From an uncultured bacterium (GTDB lineage Bacteria > Fidelibacterota > Marinisomatia > Marinisomatales > UBA1611): DNA of 16,979 nt. How positions within the stretch are numbered: position 1 is the first letter of the stretch; every line of letters starts with the position of its first letter. This document shows positions 2,178 through 16,768 of the stretch, in pieces. The DNA lies in assembly GCA_965660855.1 (NCBI GenBank), contig CBFIBM010000015.1:1-16979 (forward strand), read 5' to 3'. The translations under genes and the position numbers were made by a program. Below the pieces are notes generated by a model that searched no databases, was not told where the DNA came from, and saw only the letters and a list, made by a program, of their open reading frames with translations.

Positions 2178-2320
2178 TTTATAGCCTCCAAAATAGAGTT
2201 TATTAAAAAATTGGTAGGGAACAAAAAAAAGTTTCCGACGTTAACTAATATATTCTGAGTCAAATATTTAGATATCATTAAAAATTAGTCAGTTCAGATC
2301 CTTTATATCCCAAAAAACAA

Positions 2321-2334
2321 TTAGGTAAACCTAA
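2321..2334. promoter_or_regulatory. Palindromic operator candidate TTAGGT-AA-ACCTAA (DtxR/MntR/SirR-box-like)
   Basis: Perfect 6-bp arms with a 2-nt centre; covers the predicted -10; resembles the TTAGGTTAACCTAA core of DtxR-family boxes. Confidence 0.45.
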
Positions 2335-2356
2335 AAGCTGAATCGTTATGAGTCAA
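2328..2356 (-). promoter_or_regulatory. Putative sigma70-type promoter of the TonB-dependent receptor
   Basis: Minus strand TTGACT (2356..2351), 17-nt spacer, TAGGTT (2333..2328, TAnnnT), about 150 nt upstream of the ATG. Confidence 0.5.
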
Positions 2357-2433
2357 GATAAATGTTTTGATTGATATTTCCCGTGTTTTCATTTTCATTG
2401 ACCCAAAAAAACCTGATAGAAAACCCTTCAATT

Positions 2434-3264
2434 TTATTTTTTTACGCCCGCCCACTGCAATTCAATAATAGGAACCCAACTTTCCATTAAAGGAAGATAG
2501 GGCAAAATCCTGGTTTGCTTACCAAAGGGTAATTCTGCACGAACCAACTTGTATCCAGTTGTTACCCTGAAATTTTTTGATTTTTCCCAGCTTAATAAAA
2601 ATTTGTGCTCTAATGAAAATAGTCCTCTTAAATCTTTGAAACTAGGATCCGATTGCATTTTTGCTATTTTAGGTAAAATTAAAAAATCCAGATCCACCAG
2701 AAAGGAAAAGTTTTTGTTAATTGATTTTTGAATATCAATACCATTGTGATACCCCCAACCATTACTATATAAGGCAAGACGATGATAAACTAAAGGTAAA
2801 TCAATTGTTAATCTTTTATCTGGAGCTTCAGAAACCAAAGCAAAGTCGATTCCGTTCTTTATAGTAATATCAAAACCATTCAAGGGTTTAGTCATTATCC
2901 AAGAGTATGAGAACCCAACCATAGGAGGGGTTTTTAAATTTGGATCTATTACTCCACCTATTCCTTCTTTTGAAATAATATTTAAAAGTGGGGTTGGATA
3001 TCGAAAAGAAATTTTACTTGCGCAATTAAAACCCCAAATCCTCTCTTCTGCTCTCTTTACGGAAACATTAGGCATCACAAAAAACAATAAGGGGTGAGTG
3101 CTAAATTCAGTTTTATCAGAGTAACCGTATCGAAATGGCTGAAACAAACCAATCTCCCATCTTTTTTTAGCTATTACTTCAGCAGAATTAGAGCTCCACG
3201 AAGTGTTCATCGAAAATAAAGTCTTTATAGAAAATAATAATACTATATAATAAATATGTTTCAT
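2434..3264 (-). CDS. Hypothetical exported protein, possibly outer-membrane beta-barrel (276 aa)
   Basis: Signal-peptide-like N-terminus MKHIYYIVLLFSIKTLFS; amphipathic strand-like segments (FSFLVDLDFL, FRVTTGYKLV, IIELQW near the C-terminus); abuts the upstream gene with no gap; GGGAG upstream of the ATG. Confidence 0.7.
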   Translation of the reverse strand: MKHIYYIVLLFSIKTLFSMNTSWSSNSAEVIAKKRWEIGLFQPFRYGYSDKTEFSTHPLLFFVMPNVSVKRAEERIWGFNCASKISFRYPTPLLNIISKEGIGGVIDPNLKTPPMVGFSYSWIMTKPLNGFDITIKNGIDFALVSEAPDKRLTIDLPLVYHRLALYSNGWGYHNGIDIQKSINKNFSFLVDLDFLILPKIAKMQSDPSFKDLRGLFSLEHKFLLSWEKSKNFRVTTGYKLVRAELPFGKQTRILPYLPLMESWVPIIELQWAGVKK

Positions 3265-4404
3265 CTATCTTCTCCCACTTATAGATATATAAACTGCACT
3301 TACTGGCATATGATCGCTAAGTTTCCAAGCCGCTTGATGAGTGTACCCAGACCCTTCTAACCAAGATCCATTTGTAAATAAGTAATCTAGTTTTCTATCA
3401 TGCTTTGTATAGGTGCTGTCATTTATCATGCTGGTAGAGGGAGCATGTGTGTGATTCTCAGGTAATAATATAGATCCATCATCAGCGGGTATTGCAGAAC
3501 TATAACTATTGTATAAAGGAAGCAAGATATCCGGCTCACCATCAAAATGCGAAAAATAAGAGCCTTGATAAGCATCGTTGTTCTCGAAATCTCCATCACA
3601 AATCTCATCATCGCATTTGTCGCTTTCGCAAAAGTCTATTACCGATCCCGGTGGGACAGAATTTAGATCGCCGCCACTTACAAAATCTCCATTCTCTGCG
3701 ACAATCTCATCTAAAATTTCTGAATATTGTTCTATATGCTTTTCTTTTGTATCATCAGTTGCAAAAGCAGTAGCGTGTATATCAACAGCAAAAAAATCTC
3801 TTCCATTTTGAGACAAACTTGGGATTTTTACCTTCAAAATATTTCTTCTTAAGTAAAAGTATTGTACGAGATCATCTTGATCTGTTCTTAATTGTAATTG
3901 AACTCTTTCAGCATCCGTAAGTTCATACTTAGATAGGATAGCGTTCCCCGTATTTATTTTACCGATTCCATCTGTTGGTATGAAATCAGCTTCCCACATG
4001 GATGCATAACAAGCGTAATTGTAATAAGTATTATCTAGCAAATATTGAACCTGATCTAGATACCCCGTTCTTTTAGATGAAACATCAACTTCTTGTAGCA
4101 GAACTATATCTGCGTCAATCATATTTAACGTATCTGCGATACCCTGCATAATTGAATTGATATGATTCTGATCTGCTACAACATCATCACCGCAAGAATC
4201 TCCAAAAAAAGGAAACCTTCCCGATCCAAACCTTATATTCCAAGTAACTACTTTTATGGGTCCATCATCATAAACACTTAATGAGTCTGGAATTTCTGTA
4301 GCTTTATACATAACAGCATCACTTTTCTGGGAAAACTCAGTAACGAATGGATCACAGCCGCTTAATATAATTATTGAAAACAATATTAGGTTTAGAAACT
4401 TCAT
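3265..4404 (-). CDS. Endonuclease/exonuclease/phosphatase (EEP) family lipoprotein
   Basis: Lipobox LSG-C after a hydrophobic leader; EEP motifs VVTWNI, DIVLLQEVD, GNAILSKY, GGDLNS, KLDYLF, LSDHMPV; AAGGAG SD; ATGA overlap with the arsC stop. Confidence 0.9.
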   Translation of the reverse strand: MKFLNLILFSIIILSGCDPFVTEFSQKSDAVMYKATEIPDSLSVYDDGPIKVVTWNIRFGSGRFPFFGDSCGDDVVADQNHINSIMQGIADTLNMIDADIVLLQEVDVSSKRTGYLDQVQYLLDNTYYNYACYASMWEADFIPTDGIGKINTGNAILSKYELTDAERVQLQLRTDQDDLVQYFYLRRNILKVKIPSLSQNGRDFFAVDIHATAFATDDTKEKHIEQYSEILDEIVAENGDFVSGGDLNSVPPGSVIDFCESDKCDDEICDGDFENNDAYQGSYFSHFDGEPDILLPLYNSYSSAIPADDGSILLPENHTHAPSTSMINDSTYTKHDRKLDYLFTNGSWLEGSGYTHQAAWKLSDHMPVSAVYISISGRR

Positions 4405-4769
4405 TTTGACTCCTTCTTTTTCAATAAAGTTAATACTTTTTCAGGGGGACGACACACAAGTGCTTTGTTTTGAACCACAACAATAGGACGCTCCAAAATT
4501 TTTGGATATCTAGAAATTGCTTTTGCCATTTTTTGGTCATTAGAAATAAACTCTTCTAATTTGTTTTCCTTAAATTCCGCTTCATTTTTCCTAACAAATT
4601 GTCCAGGAGCAAGCCCAAGTTCTTCCGAAATATTTAGCACCTCAGTTATGGACAACGGATTTTTTAAATATTCTCTTATTGTAAAATTCACGCTCTTTTC
4701 TCTAAGGAGCTGCACGGCTCCTCTGCTTTTTTTTCAACGAGGATTATGATATATGATTATATTTTTCAT
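4401..4769 (-). CDS. arsC: Arsenate reductase, glutaredoxin-type ArsC family, probable selenoprotein (122 aa, Sec12)
   Basis: From ATG 4769: MKNIIIYHNPR-TGA-KKSRGAVQLLREK, in frame with the track ORF 4401..4715. The TGA (4736..4734) is codon 12, the catalytic Cys of the IYHNPxCxxSR motif. Conserved arginines in FVRKNE, ILERPIVV and VCRPPE. Confidence 0.88.
4704..4723 (-). promoter_or_regulatory. Putative bacterial SECIS element
   Basis: GAGGAGC-CGUGCA-GCUCCUU hairpin (7 bp including one G-U). Stem starts at the 11th nt after the UGA; loop starts at the 18th nt, with GU at loop positions 2-3. Confidence 0.72.
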
Positions 4770-4909
4770 TTAATTATACTCATTTTTATATTTTCAGAAA
4801 CTTAATATAGCACTCTTTGATTTAATTTTTTTAAAAAAACCCATTAGATTCATTCTTATTTTTTAAAAATAAAATTTTTTGTATATTTTAGCTAATAAAA
4901 TAAAAAAAT

Positions 4910-5359
4910 ATGAAACTAGACGAAACCGATATTCAAATTCTTAAAGCTCTTCAGAATGATGGTCGAGAATCAGCAAGCCACATAGCTGAAAGAGTAAATG
5001 TTTCTGTTCCAACTGTAACTGAGCGCATTAGAAAACTTCAAGAGAGCGGAATTATTTTGGGATTTCAAACTGTCATAGACCCCAGCTCAATTGGCTTAGA
5101 TGTTGCCGCAATAATCACTATTATTTCAGGTTCATCTCAATATTATAGAGAAGTTACAATTGCTGCTGAGGAAACACCGGAAGTTGTTCAATGCTTTAGC
5201 ACAACTGGAAATGGTTCACATATGCTGTTTGTTATCACAAAAAATTCAAATACACTTGAAGAGCTTTTAAGAAAAATTCAAAGCTGGCCAGGTGTTGTTA
5301 GAACAGAAACTCAAATAATTCTTTCTTCTTATAAACTTGGATCTACTGTACCTTTATAG
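4910..5359 (+). CDS. Lrp/AsnC family transcriptional regulator
   Basis: N-terminal LDETDIQILKALQNDGR..IAERVNVSVPTVTERIRKLQESGII HTH; C-terminal RAM domain with PEVVQCFSTTG and GVVRTETQIIL. Confidence 0.95.
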   Translation: MKLDETDIQILKALQNDGRESASHIAERVNVSVPTVTERIRKLQESGIILGFQTVIDPSSIGLDVAAIITIISGSSQYYREVTIAAEETPEVVQCFSTTGNGSHMLFVITKNSNTLEELLRKIQSWPGVVRTETQIILSSYKLGSTVPL

Positions 5360-5536
5360 CAAACACTAACTCCCCTAAACTCCACTGTCGGACTAGCTAA
5401 AAACCTTAAGTTTTAAAAAATTGTTGCATTAAACAAAAATAATATTTTTTATAAAATCTTAATTTTTTTATATTATTGTGTTATATATTGAATTTTTTAA
5501 ACTAATTTAGACAATAAACATTAATAAGGTAAGTAA

Positions 5537-6547
5537 ATGAGCAAAATAAGATTAGAGTATATTTGGATGGATGGCCATGCCCCAACCCAAAAATTAAGAT
5601 CAAAAACAAAAGTTTTAGAAGGCCCAATTAAATCTATTGAAGATTTACCAGATTGGGGCTTTGATGGATCCAGTACAAATCAAGCTGAAGGTAACAACAG
5701 TGATTGCCTTTTAAGGCCGGTTTATAAGGTCCCTGATCCAATCAGAGGTGGGGATGATTTGCTAGTGATGTGTGAAGTAATGAATGCGGATGGAACAGTT
5801 CATGATTCAAATACAAGAGCTCATTTAAGAGAAATTTCTGAAAAGTATAAATCTGAAGAAGCTTGGTTTGGTATCGAACAAGAGTACACTCTTTTTGATG
5901 GGCGGAACCCATTGGGATGGCCCGAAGGTGGCTATCCAGCACCTCAAGGGCCTTTCTATTGCGGGGTAGGAGCAGACGAAGTATACGGTAGAGATATTGT
6001 TGAAGAGCATCTTCAATTATGTATAGATGCTGGTTTAGAAATTTCTGGAATCAATGCTGAAGTAATGCCTGGACAATGGGAATATCAAATCGGTCCACTC
6101 GGTCCTTTAGAGTCTGGAGATCAAATGTGGTTATCTAGATGGCTTTTATATCGAATTGCAGAGGACTATGGTGTAAGTGCTACCTTACATCCAAAACCTG
6201 TTAAGGGCGATTGGAATGGAGCTGGAGCCCATACGAACTTTAGCACCAAATCTATGCGCGCATCCGGAGGGATCAAAGTCATAAAGGCTGCTTGTGAAAA
6301 ACTCAGTAAAAAACATGATGATCATATTGCAGTATATGGTGCACATAACGAAGAAAGGCTAACAGGATTACATGAAACCTGCAGTATAAAAGAATTTAGA
6401 TATGGTGTGAGTGACCGAGGCGCATCAATTCGTATACCAATGCAAACTGCAAACGAAGGCTATGGATACCTTGAAGATAGAAGACCTTCTGCGAATATGG
6501 ATCCATACCAAGTTTGTGCAATTCTAATTAGTACAACCTGTAGTTAG
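5537..6547 (+). CDS. glnII: Glutamine synthetase type II
   Basis: 336 aa; LEYIWMDG, LRSKTKV, WGFDGSSTNQAEG, WFGIEQEY, PQGPFYCGVG, GINAEVMPGQWEYQIGP, DWNGAGAHTNFST, RLTGLHET, DRGASIRIP, YLEDRRPSANMDPY. Confidence 0.95.
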   Translation: MSKIRLEYIWMDGHAPTQKLRSKTKVLEGPIKSIEDLPDWGFDGSSTNQAEGNNSDCLLRPVYKVPDPIRGGDDLLVMCEVMNADGTVHDSNTRAHLREISEKYKSEEAWFGIEQEYTLFDGRNPLGWPEGGYPAPQGPFYCGVGADEVYGRDIVEEHLQLCIDAGLEISGINAEVMPGQWEYQIGPLGPLESGDQMWLSRWLLYRIAEDYGVSATLHPKPVKGDWNGAGAHTNFSTKSMRASGGIKVIKAACEKLSKKHDDHIAVYGAHNEERLTGLHETCSIKEFRYGVSDRGASIRIPMQTANEGYGYLEDRRPSANMDPYQVCAILISTTCS

Positions 6548-6564
6548 AAAAACGATTTTATTAT

Positions 6565-6604
6565 AAACAATGGAAGCAACCTAAAATATATGCTTCCATT
6601 GTTT
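6565..6604. terminator. Bidirectional intrinsic terminator between convergent glnII and asparaginase genes
   Basis: Perfect 14-bp inverted repeat AAACAATGGAAGCA (6565-6578) / TGCTTCCATTGTTT (6591-6604) with a 12-nt loop and AT-rich flanks. Confidence 0.75.
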
Positions 6605-7089
6605 TAAATTTTTTCAAAAACACCTGTTTCTTTATTTTTTTTAACAGCATCCCAGTCAAAATACTTCCCGTTCATAGCAATATAAACACCGACTGGTAAG
6701 GCTTGAGAAAATGCAAGAGCACTGCCAACATTAAACAGGCCATCGCTACTTCCAAAGTTATAGGGGATCATTGCCCCTGTTAAAATTATCGTTTTGTCTA
6801 ATTTTTCTTTCGCAAGAACTCTTGCGGTTTTTGTCATCGTGTCTGTCCCGTGGGTAATCACAATTTGCTTTTCATCAACTTTTTTACAAGAATTTTTAAT
6901 ATATAACCTCTCTTTATTTGACATTGTCAAACTATCAATAAGCATCAAGGTAGTAATGTTTACTTCAAGTCTACACCTCCCCAACTTCAACAATTCTTCA
7001 ATATGAGTTTTATCAAAGAAAAGCTTTCCCTTTATTTCGTCATACTCTTTATCAAACGTACCACCGGTAATTAAAATCCTTACAGACAT
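6604..7089 (-). CDS. Short-chain (single-domain) L-asparaginase family protein
   Basis: 161 aa; ITGGTFDK, LIDSL, ITHGTDTM, ILTGAMIPY and SDGLFNVG motifs; no C-terminal asparaginase domain. Confidence 0.9.
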   Translation of the reverse strand: MSVRILITGGTFDKEYDEIKGKLFFDKTHIEELLKLGRCRLEVNITTLMLIDSLTMSNKERLYIKNSCKKVDEKQIVITHGTDTMTKTARVLAKEKLDKTIILTGAMIPYNFGSSDGLFNVGSALAFSQALPVGVYIAMNGKYFDWDAVKKNKETGVFEKI

Positions 7090-9476: not shown

Positions 9477-10768
<1,292 letters not shown>

Positions 10769-10769
<1 letters not shown>

Positions 10770-13108
10770 TGGCATTTACAAAAGAAATTGTTGATTTTAG
10801 CGATCTTAATGATCGAGAAATCCAAGAAACTCTTGCAGGCCTAAACATATCTCTATCCTCAGAAGAAGTAAAAAAAATTCAAAACAAAATGCTGGGCAGA
10901 GCTCCCTCTATCTCCGAGTTGGTTTTATTCTCCATACAAGGATCAGAACACTGTAGCTATAAAAGTAGTCGGCCCTATTTAAAACAGTTTATTACGGAAA
11001 GCCCCGATGTAGTTCTTGGTGCGAAAGAAGATGCAGGAGTTGTTGCCGTTACAACAGATAATAGTGGAAAGCGCTGGTGTATTGTTATGAGCCATGAATC
11101 TCATAACCACCCCTCACAAATTGTTCCTTATGAGGGAGCAGCAACAGGAGTTGGGGGTAATGTAAGAGATGTTATGTGCATGGGTGCAGAAGTTATTGCT
11201 TGTACGGACTCTCTTCGCTTTGGAGAGATAAGCAAGAGCAAAACAAAATGGATCCACGAAGGTGTAGTATCAGGAATCGCTGGCTATGGAAACCCACTTG
11301 GTATTCCCAATATTGGAGGTGATTTGTACTATAATAAAGGGTATAATGAAAATTGCCTTGTGACACTAGTTACTTTAGGAATTGTCAGAGAAGATAATAT
11401 AATACATTCTTATGCACCTAAAAATGCCAATGGCTATGATTTAATTTTAATTGGGAAGCCCACTGATAATAGCGGATTTGGCGGTGCTAGCTTTGCTTCT
11501 GTTGAATTAGAAGAAGAAAAAAAAGAAAAAAACAAAGGTGCGGTGCAAGAACCAAATGCGTTTCTTGAAAGACATCTCCTTAAATCAACCTATGCTCTTT
11601 TTAATATATTAAGGAGTAAAAACTTAATTGACCAAGTTGGGTTTAAAGATTTAGGAGCCGGTGGTGTCGCCTGCGCAAGCGTAGAACTGGCAGAAACCTC
11701 TGGTTATGGTTCAGAAGTTTGGATGGATAAAGTACACAAAGGGATGGATGGCTTACACTCCTCTGTTTACCTGTGTAGTGAAACACAAGAACGATTTATG
11801 TGGGTTTGCCCACCATCCATAACAGAACTTATTGTTAATCATTATAACAAAACATTTGATCTCCCAAGTGTAAGTAGTGGTGCCAAAGCATCGGTAATAG
11901 GGAAAATTAGAGAAGATGGGCAATATATTGTTCATGATAAAAATGAAGAAATAGTTAATGCTGTTGCATCAGAAGTAACAAAAGGATTTTTATACAATCG
12001 ACCTTATGAGAATCCAAATAATGTTTTTTATGAACCTGAATTAAAAACACCTGCCAACTTTAATGAAATATTAATCAAAATAATGTCTCATGAGAATATG
12101 GCAAGTAGAAAGCCAGTTTTTGAACAATATGATAAACAGGTTCAAGGTAGAACATACACAGAATCTGGGATATCAAATTCTGGAATGCTCTCTCCTTTTA
12201 ATTCTTCAGATTATCCTCCTGAGATAAGAAATATTGGTGTTGCGCTTTCAACGGATCAAAATCCAAGATACGGATTAATAAGCCCTTATTGGGTTGGCGT
12301 TAATGCAACTGTTGAGTCTATGAGAAATGTTGCTTCATCAGGAGCTACACCCCACGCAATAACAGATTGTTTGTGTTTTGGTAACCCTGAAAAACCTAAG
12401 CAAATGTGGGAATTTGTTGAAAGCACAAAGGGGATTTCTGATGTTTGCAAAGTTATTACTTTAAAAGACCATCCTGGAATGCCGACTCCAATAATTGCAG
12501 GAAATGTTAGTTTTTATAATGAGTCAAAATCTGGTGCTATTCCTCCAAGCCCTATTGTTAGTTGTCTAGGTAGAATAAAAGATGTTAACAAATCTATCAG
12601 CATGAGTTTTAAAAAAAATAATTCTTTAATTTTAATGGTTGGAAAAAGAAAAAATGAACTTGGAGGCTCCATTTATTATGAACTTTTTAATGAACTTGGT
12701 GCAAATGTTCCAAAACCAGACTTAGAAGAAGTGAAAAATGAAATTTTTTCTTTAACAAGTTGTATAGATAATGAACTTATTATATCATGCCATGATATAA
12801 GTGATGGCGGTTTATCAAGCACTTTATCAGAAATGACCTTTAAAAATGAAATTGGCTGTACGATCAATTTTAAAAATCATAACCTTTCGTCAGAAGCTTT
12901 TTTATTCAGTGAAACAGGTGGGTTTATTCTTGAAGTTGAAGAAAAAAACTTGAAGGTTGTTGAACAAAAATTTAAAAAAAATAATATTGCTGTTATTTCC
13001 ATTGGGGAAACAAACTCCAGCAAAAAAATAAAAATAAATAACGAAATTAATATCAGCTTAATTCACGTGAAACAAGCATGGGAATCAGGTTTGCGAGACA
13101 AGCTTTAA
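10769..13108 (+). CDS. purL: Phosphoribosylformylglycinamidine synthase subunit PurL (small type, 779 aa)
   Basis: SEHCSYKSS, EDAGVV, ESHNHPS..PYEGAATGVGG, DLGAGG, SETQERF, QYDKQVQ, TDCLCFGNPE, GNVSFYNE, HDISDGGL; no fused glutaminase. Confidence 0.97.
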
Positions 13109-13127
13109 CCTTTGATGAAATTTAACT

Positions 13128-14165
13128 ATGAATAAAATTGATTATAAGTCTGCGGGTGTAGACATTGATGCCGGAAACGAAGCTGTTGAAAAAATTAAAG
13201 ACGGTGTAAAATCAACTTTTTCTAAAAATGTTTTAACAGGTTTGGGCAGCTTTGGCTCTCTTTATGATTTAAAGCCTCTTTTAGAAAACTATAAAAACCC
13301 TGTTCTAGTACAGAGTATTGATGGTGTTGGTACAAAAACAATTATTGCGCGAAAATTAAATAAATTTGATACCATTGGAATTGATTTATTAAGCGCTTGT
13401 GCTAATGATATCTTAGTTATGGGCGCAAGACCACTTACTTTTCTTGATTATATTGCAAATGACAAGTTAAAGCCAAATCGTATTGAAGAAATTGTTTCTG
13501 GAATGATTAAAGCTTGTAAGGAATCTAACGTTTCTTTAGTTGGTGGAGAAACTGCTGAAATGCCAGATACCTATTTACCAGGAGAACATGATTTAGTTGG
13601 AGTGATTACCGGTGTTGTTGATAAAGATAAAATTATCACAGGTGATACCATTATGCCTGGAGACGCTATTTTAGGCCTTCCTTCTAATGGTCTACATACA
13701 AATGGCTATTCCTTAGCTCGAAAACTTTTTTTTGATGTAGGAAAATATAATGTCAATGATACTATTGATGAACTTCCAAAATCAGTTGGACTTACCTTAT
13801 TGGAGCCTCATGTTAATTATACAAATCATGTGTTTACAGTATTAGACAATGGTATCCCTATAAAAGGAATTGCACATATAACGGGTGGTGGATTAATTGA
13901 AAATATTCCCCGCGTAGTTCCAGGCTCTTATGGAATTTTTATAGAACAAAACTCTTGGCCAAACCTTTCTGTTTTTGATATTATGAAGAGGATTGGAAAT
14001 ATAAGCGACGATGAAATGTTTCGCACCTTCAATATGGGGATAGGGATGGTCCTTATTGTTGAGAATAAACATATAGAATTAGCGAGAGAGTCGCTTAAAA
14101 ATATTTGCAATGTTTATGAAATTGGTGTTGTTACTGATAAAACTAATAGTGTGAAAATCTTATGA
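13128..14165 (+). CDS. purM: Phosphoribosylformylglycinamidine cyclo-ligase (AIR synthetase)
   Basis: YKSAGVDIDAGN, DGVGTK, FLDYIA, GGETAEMP, SNGLHTNGYSL, AHITGGG, EMFRTFNMGIGM. Confidence 0.98.
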   Translation: MNKIDYKSAGVDIDAGNEAVEKIKDGVKSTFSKNVLTGLGSFGSLYDLKPLLENYKNPVLVQSIDGVGTKTIIARKLNKFDTIGIDLLSACANDILVMGARPLTFLDYIANDKLKPNRIEEIVSGMIKACKESNVSLVGGETAEMPDTYLPGEHDLVGVITGVVDKDKIITGDTIMPGDAILGLPSNGLHTNGYSLARKLFFDVGKYNVNDTIDELPKSVGLTLLEPHVNYTNHVFTVLDNGIPIKGIAHITGGGLIENIPRVVPGSYGIFIEQNSWPNLSVFDIMKRIGNISDDEMFRTFNMGIGMVLIVENKHIELARESLKNICNVYEIGVVTDKTNSVKIL

Positions 14166-15421
14166 ATCCAAAGATTGCAATAATTCAATTTCCTGGTTCA
14201 AATACGGAAAGAGAAACTATCATGGCTTGTGAACGTGTAGGTCTAACACCAATTGAATTTTTGTGGAATGAGGACCCAAAAAAACTTTCTTCTTTTGATG
14301 GTTATATTATTGTGGGTGGTTTTTCATACGAAGATCGTTCAAGGTCGGGTGTCATCGCATCTTTGGAACCTATAATTGATCAATTAAAAATTGAGTCTGT
14401 AAAAGGCAAAGCAGTTCTTGGTATTTGTAATGGAGCACAGATTTTAGTAGAGTCTGGATTAATTCCAGGGTTTAAGGATTATGCTCTTGGCGTTGCACTT
14501 ACTGATAATAAAAGAATTAAAAATAATAATATTGTTGGAGTGGGTTATTATAATACATGGTCAGATTTAAAAATGGATATACGACCTAATCGATGTGCTT
14601 TTACAAGACATTTAAAAAAAGAAGAACTGATCAATATCCCTTTAGCTCATGGAGAAGGGCGCTTCATAATGAGCGATGAAGTTTTAAAAGATTTGGTAAA
14701 AAATGAACAAGCCGTTTTCCGCTACTGTAATAAACAAGGTGAAACTCTTGATGAATTTCCCGTTAATCCAAATGGATCCTTGTATAATATTGCAGCATTA
14801 TGTAATTCAAAGGGGAACGTTATGGCAATAATGCCCCATCCTGAAAGAACAAAAAATGGAGATCCAATTTTTTCTTCCTTGAAAGAATATATTCAAGAAA
14901 AAATCAATTTGCCTAACTCTGAATTAAGTTCTTTTGTCCCAAAGTCTCATATATCTTCTTTCTCACCTAGGGAAGGGGCAACAGAGTGGGTAGTAGACCA
15001 AATAATAACAGACAATGAAGCCTCTTCTGTTCAAAAAGCATTACAGAAAAAAGGTTTTAATGTTACGATAAAACGACAGGATCATTGGGAAATCTCTGTT
15101 GTCGGAAATACAAAGTCTATCCTACAATCCATTGACTTAAGCGGGGAGCTTTATAACTCAAATAAAGAGTTTATAAGCAAACTAACTAATGAAGAAAATA
15201 CAATATCTTTTCTAGTAAGAAAAAAAGAAGATATTTTGGCTCGATCTAAAACAGAGTCACTTAAAGAACGATTTAAAATAGACGGAATTACTAAAATAAA
15301 TTACGGTGTTGTCTGGAATGTAACAGTAAATAAAGGTAATTTTGAATCTATTATAACTGAATTAATTAACACTCAAATACTTTTTAATAAAATATCACAT
15401 GAATGCTATAGAATCAACTAA
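14162..15421 (+). CDS. purQ: FGAM synthase glutaminase subunit PurQ with C-terminal extension of about 170 aa (tandem PurS-like)
   Basis: FPGSN, GGFSYED, LGICNGAQILVESGL (catalytic Cys), AHGEGRF, NPNGS, MPHPER. The PurQ domain ends near aa 245 but the ORF is 419 aa. Confidence 0.95.
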   Translation: MNPKIAIIQFPGSNTERETIMACERVGLTPIEFLWNEDPKKLSSFDGYIIVGGFSYEDRSRSGVIASLEPIIDQLKIESVKGKAVLGICNGAQILVESGLIPGFKDYALGVALTDNKRIKNNNIVGVGYYNTWSDLKMDIRPNRCAFTRHLKKEELINIPLAHGEGRFIMSDEVLKDLVKNEQAVFRYCNKQGETLDEFPVNPNGSLYNIAALCNSKGNVMAIMPHPERTKNGDPIFSSLKEYIQEKINLPNSELSSFVPKSHISSFSPREGATEWVVDQIITDNEASSVQKALQKKGFNVTIKRQDHWEISVVGNTKSILQSIDLSGELYNSNKEFISKLTNEENTISFLVRKKEDILARSKTESLKERFKIDGITKINYGVVWNVTVNKGNFESIITELINTQILFNKISHECYRIN

Positions 15422-16385
15422 ACACTACAAAGATCGAATTAAATCGGAATTAAAAAACACTTTAACAGATACAAATTTAAGAGCTAAAGTAAAAAGAACT
15501 GGTAAAGTAAGAGATCAATATGAATTCGATAATAAAATCGTCCTTATAACAACAGACCGACAGAGTGCCTTTGACCGCGTCCTTGCTTCGATCCCATTTA
15601 AGGGACAAGTACTGAACCTTACGAGTGCATGGTGGTTTGAACAAACAAAACATATTATTGAAAATCAAGTTATTGAAATACCAGATCCTAACATTACCTT
15701 GGCTAAAAAATGTACTGTGTTTCCAATTGAATTTGTTGTGAGAGGTTTCATTACCGGTAGTACGAGCACTTCTCTTTGGACTGTCTATAGAAATGGAGAT
15801 CGCGAATACTGTGGAAATAAATTAGAAGAAGGCTTAGTGAAAAATCAAAAGCTAGATCAAAACATGTTAACTCCAACCACAAAAGAAGTAGAACATGATC
15901 GACCTATCTCCCCAAAAGAAATTGTTAGTGAGAATTGGATGACACAAGAAGACTGGGATTATTGTAGTAAAAAAGCTCTAGAACTCTTCTCTTTTGGTCA
16001 AAAAAAGGCAGCTGAAAATGGAATGATATTGGTAGATACCAAATATGAGATGGGTAAAGATGAAAATGGAAATATTGTTTTAATTGATGAAATACATACA
16101 CCGGACTCAAGTAGATACTGGGTTGCAGAATCATATGAAGAGCGTATCCATAAAGGAGAAGAACCTCAAAATATTGATAAGGAGTTTTTACGACTATGGT
16201 TTGTAGATAATTGTGATCCGTATAATGATAAAGAGCTTCCAGAAGCCCCTGATGATTTGGTTATTGAACTTTCAAGTAGATATATTTATTTGTATGAAAC
16301 AATAACTGGAGGCCTCTTCCCTTTTCCAGATTCAAAAAATTCAATAAATGATAGAATTAAAAACAACTTAAAGGACTTAATATGA
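15399..16385 (+). CDS. purC: SAICAR synthetase (long type)
   Basis: GKVRDQY, TDRQSAFD, IPFKGQVLN, PIEFVVRGFITGS, LTPTTK, ILVDTKYEMG, DEIHTPDSSRYW, DKEFLRLWF. Confidence 0.97.
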   Translation: MNAIESTKHYKDRIKSELKNTLTDTNLRAKVKRTGKVRDQYEFDNKIVLITTDRQSAFDRVLASIPFKGQVLNLTSAWWFEQTKHIIENQVIEIPDPNITLAKKCTVFPIEFVVRGFITGSTSTSLWTVYRNGDREYCGNKLEEGLVKNQKLDQNMLTPTTKEVEHDRPISPKEIVSENWMTQEDWDYCSKKALELFSFGQKKAAENGMILVDTKYEMGKDENGNIVLIDEIHTPDSSRYWVAESYEERIHKGEEPQNIDKEFLRLWFVDNCDPYNDKELPEAPDDLVIELSSRYIYLYETITGGLFPFPDSKNSINDRIKNNLKDLI

Positions 16386-16768
16386 AAGCAATCTTAATTA
16401 TGGGCTCAACTGCAGATGAACCACATGCAAAAAAAATAACTGATAAACTTGATGAGTACAATATAAAATGGGAGCAGCACGCGGCTTCCGCTCATAAACA
16501 ACCTTTAAAAGTCTTAGAAATATTAGAAAATAATAAAAGTAATAATGATATTATTTATATCACAATTGCCGGAAGATCTAATGCTTTATCTGGATTTGTT
16601 GCTGCAAATTCTCAATTTCCAACGATCGGATGCCCTCCATTTTCTGATAAGGCGGACATGCTCGTAAATATTCATTCTACACTTCAAATGCCTAGTAGCA
16701 CTCCCGTTCTCACAGTAATTGACCCAGGAAATTGTGCATTAGCTGTTAAACGGATATTTGGTGTATAG
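16382..16768 (+). CDS. purE: AIR carboxylase PurE, class II-like (128 aa)
   Basis: IMGSTAD, SAHK, YITIAGRSNALSGFV, PTIGCPP, STLQMPS; ATGA overlap with purC. Confidence 0.92.
   Translation: MKAILIMGSTADEPHAKKITDKLDEYNIKWEQHAASAHKQPLKVLEILENNKSNNDIIYITIAGRSNALSGFVAANSQFPTIGCPPFSDKADMLVNIHSTLQMPSSTPVLTVIDPGNCALAVKRIFGV

Follow-up and report, generated by a model that had tools for sequence, protein, structure and literature searches.

An arsC-family gene with a conserved in-frame UGA codon, predicted to encode a selenocysteine-containing reductase in a Marinimicrobia-type bacterium

Gene content and reading frame of the arsC locus

The window (the whole stretch of DNA that was analysed, 16,979 nucleotides in length) originates from an uncultured bacterium of the SAR406/Marinimicrobia type. 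Among named genomes, the closest is a single-cell genome of Candidatus Neomarinimicrobiota, which NCBI now places in the phylum Fidelibacterota. On the minus strand, the window carries an arsC-family gene, a gene for an EEP-family protein and a third gene in immediate succession. The features of this locus are as follows:

4401..4769, minus strand: predicted selenocysteine (Sec)-containing ArsC coding sequence of 122 codons, followed by the stop TGA at 4403-4401 (PF03960 and TIGR00014)
4734..4736, minus strand: UGA codon 12, predicted to be read as Sec, in the place of the catalytic Cys12 (orthologue alignment, contigs)
4704..4723, minus strand: SECIS-type hairpin, with 5' arm 4723-4717, loop CGUGCA 4716-4711 and 3' arm 4710-4704
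4713..4715, minus strand: GTG at which ORF finders start a shortened 104-aa ORF, within the SECIS apical loop
4401..4404, minus strand: ATGA overlap, in which the arsC stop TGA (4403-4401) shares letters with the ATG (4404-4402) that starts the next gene
3265..4404, minus strand: EEP-family gene, 379 aa, with a lipoprotein-like N-terminus (PF03372, E = 2e-16; synteny)
2434..3264, minus strand: third gene of the unit, 276 aa (synteny at 20 of 29 loci)

Read on the minus strand from 4769, the arsC gene begins ATG AAA AAT ATA ATC ATA TAT CAT AAT CCT CGT TGA AAA AAA AGC AGA. When 4401-4769 is translated with TGA as U, the product is 122 residues long, starts with MKNIIIYHNPRUKKSR, followed by GAVQLL, and ends at a second TGA. 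The initial annotation had proposed this ATG start with a UGA at codon 12, and every detail of that reading was matched by the minus-strand letters and their translation. It had also stated that the 104-aa ORF listed for this gene lacks the active site, and this is indeed the case: the ORF obtained with translation table 11 (4401..4715) starts at GTG 4715 and is missing the HNPRU segment, because its start lies 3' of that segment.

The arsC stop codon is itself a TGA and overlaps the start of the EEP-family gene, on which basis it had been argued that UGA is not globally reassigned here. Two further window genes (13128-14165 and 15399-16385) also end at TGA, and read-through of these stops adds just 4-6 codons. 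As at least two other genes of the window end at TGA with so few codons to be gained, TGA can be considered an ordinary stop in this organism. Following a re-listing of the window ORFs with TGA as U, the arsC frame was the only one to gain a homologous N-terminal segment.

Similarity to glutaredoxin-coupled arsenate reductases

When the protein was read with C in place of U, it matched PF03960 (Pfam ArsC; E = 4e-14, 53.1 bits against a cut-off of 24) and the equivalog TIGR00014, "arsenate reductase (glutaredoxin)" (115.7 bits against a cut-off of 106.05). Among the NCBI family models, Spx/MgsR reached 38 bits against a cut-off of 75, and Spx-type and YffB-type models in general scored far under their cut-offs. 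The window arsC is the sole PF03960 gene of the host assembly. The best matches among solved structures are arsenate reductases: 3rdw (6e-21), and 1jzw and 1i9d (2.5e-17), the latter two of which we take to be the plasmid R773 enzyme. The alignment with 1jzw and 1i9d runs without gaps over residues 1-118 of both proteins, so that U12 faces C12, and R60, R94 and R107 face R60, R94 and R107. All three arginines had been noted to have counterparts in the window protein, and they are in register with both structures. The R60/R94/R107 triad of ArsC binds the oxyanion.

Residues H8, N9, S15, R16, R60, R94 and R107 show no variation across all 30 sequences compared (the window protein and its 29 orthologues in related genomes, described below). 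Compared with the solved glutaredoxin-coupled enzymes (1i9d, 1jzw, 3rdw and 3f0i), the window protein is alike in fold family and length and has the HNPxC/U..SR motif in register. It differs in three respects. First, the nucleophile at position 12 of the HNPxC motif is encoded by UGA (Sec, a chalcogen analogue of Cys) and is not a literal Cys as in 1jzw and 1i9d. Second, it is 122 aa in length, while the chains of 1jzw and 1i9d are 140-141 aa. Third, the window arsC is without an arsRBC-type operon context. Taken from the sequence, the product of 4401-4769 is probably a glutaredoxin-type ArsC-family reductase with Sec as its nucleophile.

Conservation of the in-frame UGA

Six-frame searches were made of 40 related genomes, with the matches read through at the aligned codon. 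An orthologue was found in 29 of these genomes, with 36-60% identity to the query. Alternation between TGA and TGY among orthologues had been suggested as a check on the UGA, and this was observed: codon 12 is TGA in 24 of the 29, well beyond what chance would give, and TGT or TGC in five (G014, G025, G030, G037 and G040). Within the window's own family, the gene is present in 21 of 24 genomes (20 TGA, 1 TGT); among the order's other families, it is present in 8 of 16 (4 TGA, 4 TGY). The YHNPR segment 5' of codon 12 and the KSR segment 3' of it are conserved as protein among the orthologues. At loci from other phyla, the motif was found in 11 of 16 cases, all with Cys codons (TGT/TGC), and 10 homologues from other phyla add to the Cys side of the comparison with the 29 orthologues; the closer Sec forms came from the related-genome search alone, while the search of loci from other phyla gave Cys forms.

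The read pile-up proposed for 4734-4736 was made with assembled contigs instead of raw reads, such that rare variants drop out; in it, the TGA was kept in three other studies. Logan contigs of runs X4, X7 and X15, each from a different study, have no other letter over these three positions, and these contigs do vary at sites nearby. X4 and X7 are labelled as possible DNA (the kind being guessed by the tool) and X15 is an RNA library. An X15 variant at 4707 converts a G-C pair of the hairpin stem to G-U and is synonymous. Run X19, a marine RNA library, had no contig over arsC.

As a side observation, the X15 contigs covering this gene originate from an RNA library, though DNA carry-over is possible.

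Based on these results, it is extremely improbable that the TGA is a nonsense mutation or marks a pseudogene, that 4734-4736 were wrongly sequenced or assembled, or that the true product is the 104-aa protein starting at GTG 4715. The short product has two points in its favour, in that table 11 yields this ORF alone and most of the gene calls in public records of the nearest relatives have lengths of 98-104 aa, but a protein of this kind would be missing H8, N9, residue 12, S15 and R16. A nonsense mutation is excluded by the retention of TGA in the great majority of orthologues at 36-60% identity with protein-level conservation of both the YHNPR and KSR flanks, and the contigs of the three other studies concur in arguing against an error.

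A SECIS-type hairpin downstream of codon 12

Beginning shortly after the UGA, the arsC mRNA is predicted to form a hairpin with a 7-bp stem and a 6-nt loop (CGUGCA), in which the second loop position is G and is followed by U. The centroid fold has an energy of -10.7 kcal/mol and the spacing between the UGA and the loop is 17 nt. According to the criteria for bacterial SECIS elements set out in a recent review (PMC13188914), the stem should be 4-16 bp, the loop should be 3-9 nt with a G at one of its first two positions, the distance from the UGA should be 16-37 nt and the minimum free energy should be -7.5 kcal/mol or lower. As these criteria are worded there, the window hairpin agrees with four of four.

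The hairpin was then compared across an alignment of 25 Sec forms. Paired cells make up 82.9% of 175, as opposed to 38-63% when the partners are slid, and none of 500 shuffles matched the observed pairing or covariation score, although these shuffle statistics are inflated by the relatedness of the sequences and by coding constraint. Compensatory switches between G-C and A-U occur in 5 sequences at pair 19-34 and in 7 at pair 20-33. Spanning the junction of stem and loop, the sequence GCCGUG occurs unchanged in 21 of the 25 Sec forms and in none of 15 Cys forms, and the median energy of the local fold is -8.3 kcal/mol for the Sec forms versus -1.6 kcal/mol for the Cys forms. The pattern is not uniform: the outermost pair (17-36) is formed in just 8 of the 25, and four Sec forms (G003, G017, G032 and G005) have other hairpins in place of the GCCGUG hairpin. 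Folding of the whole 71-nt segment was unremarkable for its composition (z = -1.24, with 23 of 200 shuffles folding as well). Because of this low whole-segment value, we rely on the local hairpin, the covariation and the contrast between Sec and Cys forms. When the whole window was scanned against Rfam at gathering thresholds, there were 0 matches, hence none to a bacterial SECIS family, which weighs neither for nor against the hairpin.

A scan of 2300-5000 for promoters and terminators found 13 promoter-like sites (11.8 expected) and 1 terminator-like site (1.5 expected). This terminator-like site, on the plus strand at 4705-4722, corresponds to the complement of the SECIS hairpin together with the complement of the A-run encoding Lys-Lys; since the orthologues do not conserve the A-run, it was not accepted as a terminator.

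Selenocysteine machinery and decoding of codon 12

If codon 12 is read as Sec, the host should encode the corresponding machinery, and a search for selA, selB, selD and tRNA-Sec had been recommended for this purpose. All four were found over their cut-offs in the host assembly (G000), which consists of 81 contigs and is 84% complete. The selA match scored 494.2 bits and is directly adjoined by selB (303.4 bits). The selD gene (388.9 bits) has one in-frame TGA of its own. The tRNA-Sec match scored 63.3 bits against a gathering score of 47, and ARAGORN identified it as tRNA-SeC with anticodon tca (UCA).

These components suggest how the two TGA codons of arsC might be told apart. SelB carrying Sec-tRNA(Sec) would bind the hairpin at 4723-4704 while the ribosome arrives at UGA-12, and because of this binding Sec would go in at codon 12 with no termination. 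At the second TGA (4403-4401), where a hairpin of this kind is missing, translation would end.

Alternatively, the UGA might be read as some other residue, either as Trp or Gly under a reassigned code or as Cys or Trp by near-cognate read-through. Support for this may be found in public cluster P0005 (84 members), in which the Sec position is occupied by W. We consider this alternative highly improbable for three reasons. First, TGA terminates arsC itself and at least two further window genes. Second, codon 12 alternates with Cys codons and not with those for Trp or Gly. Third, the full Sec machinery and the SECIS-type hairpin are present. The proposal in the initial annotation that this gene encodes a Sec-containing ArsC is therefore supported by the Sec machinery, the TGA/TGY alternation, the SECIS-type hairpin and the contigs of three studies. 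On sequence grounds, UGA codon 12 is almost certainly decoded as Sec, and we infer that selenium is in fact inserted at residue 12 of ArsC.

Arsenate reduction and the arsenic context of the host

Arsenate is likely to be the physiological substrate of this protein. Sec12, standing beside the conserved H8, N9, S15, R16, R60, R94 and R107, would attack arsenate, and the resulting Se-As adduct would then be resolved by a thiol or glutaredoxin system with release of arsenite. Both the chemistry assigned to Sec12 and the reductant are predictions made by homology. Three glutaredoxin matches were found in the host assembly; for glutathione synthetase (gshB), no match there was over the cut-off (18.7 bits against 299).

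The wider arsenic context is sparse. A genomic link to arsenite export is typical of glutaredoxin-type ArsC, though not strictly a defining feature, and none was seen here. No ars operon surrounds the window arsC. Neither ACR3 nor ArsB had a match in the host assembly (84% complete), and arsenite methyltransferase (ArsM) had none over the cut-off there, the best scoring 35 bits against 263. Across 41 genomes, ACR3 was found over the cut-off in five and ArsB in three, the latter weakly (42-52 bits). The 24 Sec-form relatives include two with ACR3 (G017 and G028), two with an ArsB-like protein (G010 and G029) and 20 with neither; when the nine listed as at least 95% complete are considered, eight are without ACR3 and ArsB. 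These counts come from draft genomes and from a pump search comprising ACR3 and ArsB; aquaglyceroporins, ArsP, ArsK and ArsJ are further possible exits for arsenite. Because arsenite may leave by routes beyond the two pumps covered and absence from a draft genome is no proof, arsenate reduction is kept as the likeliest function. Stand-alone arsC genes are common.

A conserved three-gene unit

In the window, arsC is followed by the gene for the EEP-family protein and that for the 276-aa protein. The latter matched no Pfam or NCBIfam family, its atlas neighbours are mostly from Fidelibacterota, and it may be an outer-membrane beta-barrel. Based on tblastn synteny, the three genes are contiguous at 20 of the 29 relatives' loci, and these 20 comprise every Sec-form locus in the family to which the window belongs. 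The only Cys form of this family (G014) is without the arsC-EEP-276aa neighbourhood.

It is conceivable, though unlikely, that the protein is a true ArsC-fold selenoprotein with a physiological job other than arsenate detoxification, acting on another oxyanion or on a thiol or selenol substrate jointly with the putatively co-transcribed EEP lipoprotein and the 276-aa protein. The contiguity of these genes and the ATGA overlap in the window are consistent with such a role, as are the lack of ACR3 and ArsB in eight of the nine most complete Sec-form relatives, the host assembly being without ACR3, ArsB, ArsM and gshB over their cut-offs, and a TIGR00014 score that is a mere ~10 bits above the cut-off. 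This cut-off, which is that of an equivalog, was nevertheless passed, and every arsenate-binding residue of the solved ArsC enzymes is invariant. Furthermore, the restricted pump search and the 84% completeness of the host assembly weaken the argument from missing genes, and adjacency is no proof of common function.

It is a more speculative and quite unlikely proposal that, in this family of marine Fidelibacterota, the Sec-ArsC acts as the first gene product of a conserved three-gene envelope unit (arsC, EEP lipoprotein and a 276-aa probable outer-membrane protein) in genomes with neither ACR3 nor ArsB detected, and not as a resistance enzyme tied to export. If this were true, arsenate handling might be coupled to the scavenging of phosphate esters, or the enzyme might have a non-arsenate substrate, and a Sec-ArsC family that has been catalogued but is uncharacterised would gain a different physiological role. 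With arsenate reduction retained as the preferred function, there is a modest question over the purpose of the enzyme, given that no arsenite pump was detected and that its partner genes are conserved.

Relationship to known Sec-containing arsenate reductases

The Sec-ArsC family is already known and was published as early as 2005. The analysis of Sargasso Sea sequences from that year presented a new selenoprotein family, "arsenate reductase", with 14 listed sequences belonging to COG1393 with a UxxS motif and a predicted SECIS (PMC1088965). The GOS survey of 2008 counted 77 Sec sequences of arsenate reductase, or ArsC 1 (PMC2398784), and the list of predicted families in a 2026 review includes "Arsenate reductase, TIGR00014, UxxS" (PMC13188914). 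The same review states that the functions of such selenoprotein families are largely uncharacterized and that nearly all are known by bioinformatics only (PMC13188914). As the family was published in 2005 and 2008, the window Sec-ArsC is not new, in line with the view of the initial annotation that its class had been predicted before.

As ArsC 1 (UxxS) is described in these sources, it has in common with the window gene the assignments COG1393, pfam03960 and TIGR00014, Sec in place of the catalytic Cys and a marine origin. The SECIS reported for ArsC 1 has a G in a small apical loop, as does the window hairpin, and the published descriptions drawn on here indicate no difference in kind. Since it has U-K-K-S and passes TIGR00014, the window gene can be classified as a plain ArsC 1 member. 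The other listed family, "Arsenate reductase 2" (UxxC, cd03032, NF041106; PMC2398784, PMC13188914), is similar to the window protein in belonging to the ArsC/Spx superfamily and having Sec near the N-terminus; however, as characterized in those papers it has UxxC and is recognized by Spx-like models, whereas the window protein has UxxS.

The additions made here are descriptive and concern the lineage, the 24:5 split between Sec and Cys forms, the conservation of the arsC-EEP-276aa unit and the fact that no arsenite pump was detected. Judged by titles and the opening lines of abstracts, the listed papers linking Marinimicrobia with selenoproteins do not deal with this gene. With the functions of these families described as largely uncharacterized (PMC13188914), the 24 Sec and 5 Cys orthologues with a defined SECIS could serve as material for Sec-versus-Cys enzymology.

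Representation of the gene in public databases

The significance of this Sec-ArsC lies mainly in annotation, as the gene is called as a 104-aa fragment without an active site. Standard gene callers had been predicted to truncate genes of this type, and the public records bear this out: of the 11 closest public proteins (at least 57% identity), nine are 98-104 aa in length with a query coverage of 80-85%. Four of these short proteins were inspected, and all begin at the GTG-encoded residue in the SECIS loop. Cluster P0005 (125 aa), with its W at the Sec position, was evidently called under a code in which TGA specifies Trp. As a result of such shortened or Trp-read records, counts of arsenic-cycling genes and of selenoproteins in abundant deep-ocean bacteria are biased. 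Another public cluster begins in a different frame.

Variation of the SECIS among Sec-form orthologues

The hairpin carrying the GCCGUG hexamer is absent from four of the Sec-form orthologues, namely L036 (in genome G003), L041 (G017), L045 (G032) and L047 (G005). Three of these (G003, G017 and G032) encode SRKTLQLL and have alternative hairpins, one of which lies farther downstream and has the loop CGUGA. The fourth, that of G005, has its own 9-bp hairpin in the same place as the GCCGUG hairpin of other Sec forms. These four cases suggest that, within one family, one SECIS has taken the place of another. At the strain level, an RNA-library contig (X15) differs at window position 4707, where a G-C pair of the SECIS stem becomes G-U and the Leu codon is synonymously changed. 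Contig comparison placed two further variants, at positions 4694 and 4696, outside the hairpin.

Sec machinery and public record

The following Sec machinery genes are found in the source genome (G000):

G000:C19:7427-8353, + strand: selD (L001; 388.9 bits)
G000:C16:35003-38210, minus strand: selA and selB (L003 and L004), head to tail

A gap of approximately 20 nt separates selA from selB, and the tRNA-Sec gene is on another contig, C25. As the selD match contains one in-frame TGA, the selenophosphate synthetase of this genome is probably a selenoprotein as well. In public protein cluster P0005 (125 aa, 84 member sequences), the ArsC orthologue is 64% identical and has Trp at the Sec position; this residue evidently derives from a gene call on a short contig under a code in which TGA specifies Trp.

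Genomic context of arsC

The window contains the following features:

2434-4769, - strand: tightly packed unit of arsC, an EEP-family gene and a 276-aa gene
4910-6547, + strand: Lrp/AsnC regulator, then a short glutamine synthetase (336 aa)
6604-7089, - strand: 161-aa ORF matching the N-terminal domain of asparaginase
9477-16768, + strand: purine-synthesis cluster (right half of the window)

The arsC unit, whose genes are spaced first by an ATGA overlap and then by a stop with ATG directly after it, is conserved in the relatives at 20 of 29 loci. The EEP-family product is a lipoprotein-like protein of 379 aa. No known family was found for the 276-aa protein; judging by its neighbours in the Atlas, it may be a beta-barrel of the outer membrane. 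The gene for the Lrp/AsnC regulator and arsC are divergently transcribed, and the regulator and glutamine synthetase genes also adjoin arsC as a pair in five to six relatives. The match of the 161-aa ORF is confined to this N-terminal domain (profile positions 2-163 of 193), and the ORF may represent a short form or fragment of asparaginase. The purine-synthesis cluster encodes adenylosuccinate synthetase, parts of FGAM synthase, SAICAR synthetase and AIR carboxylase.
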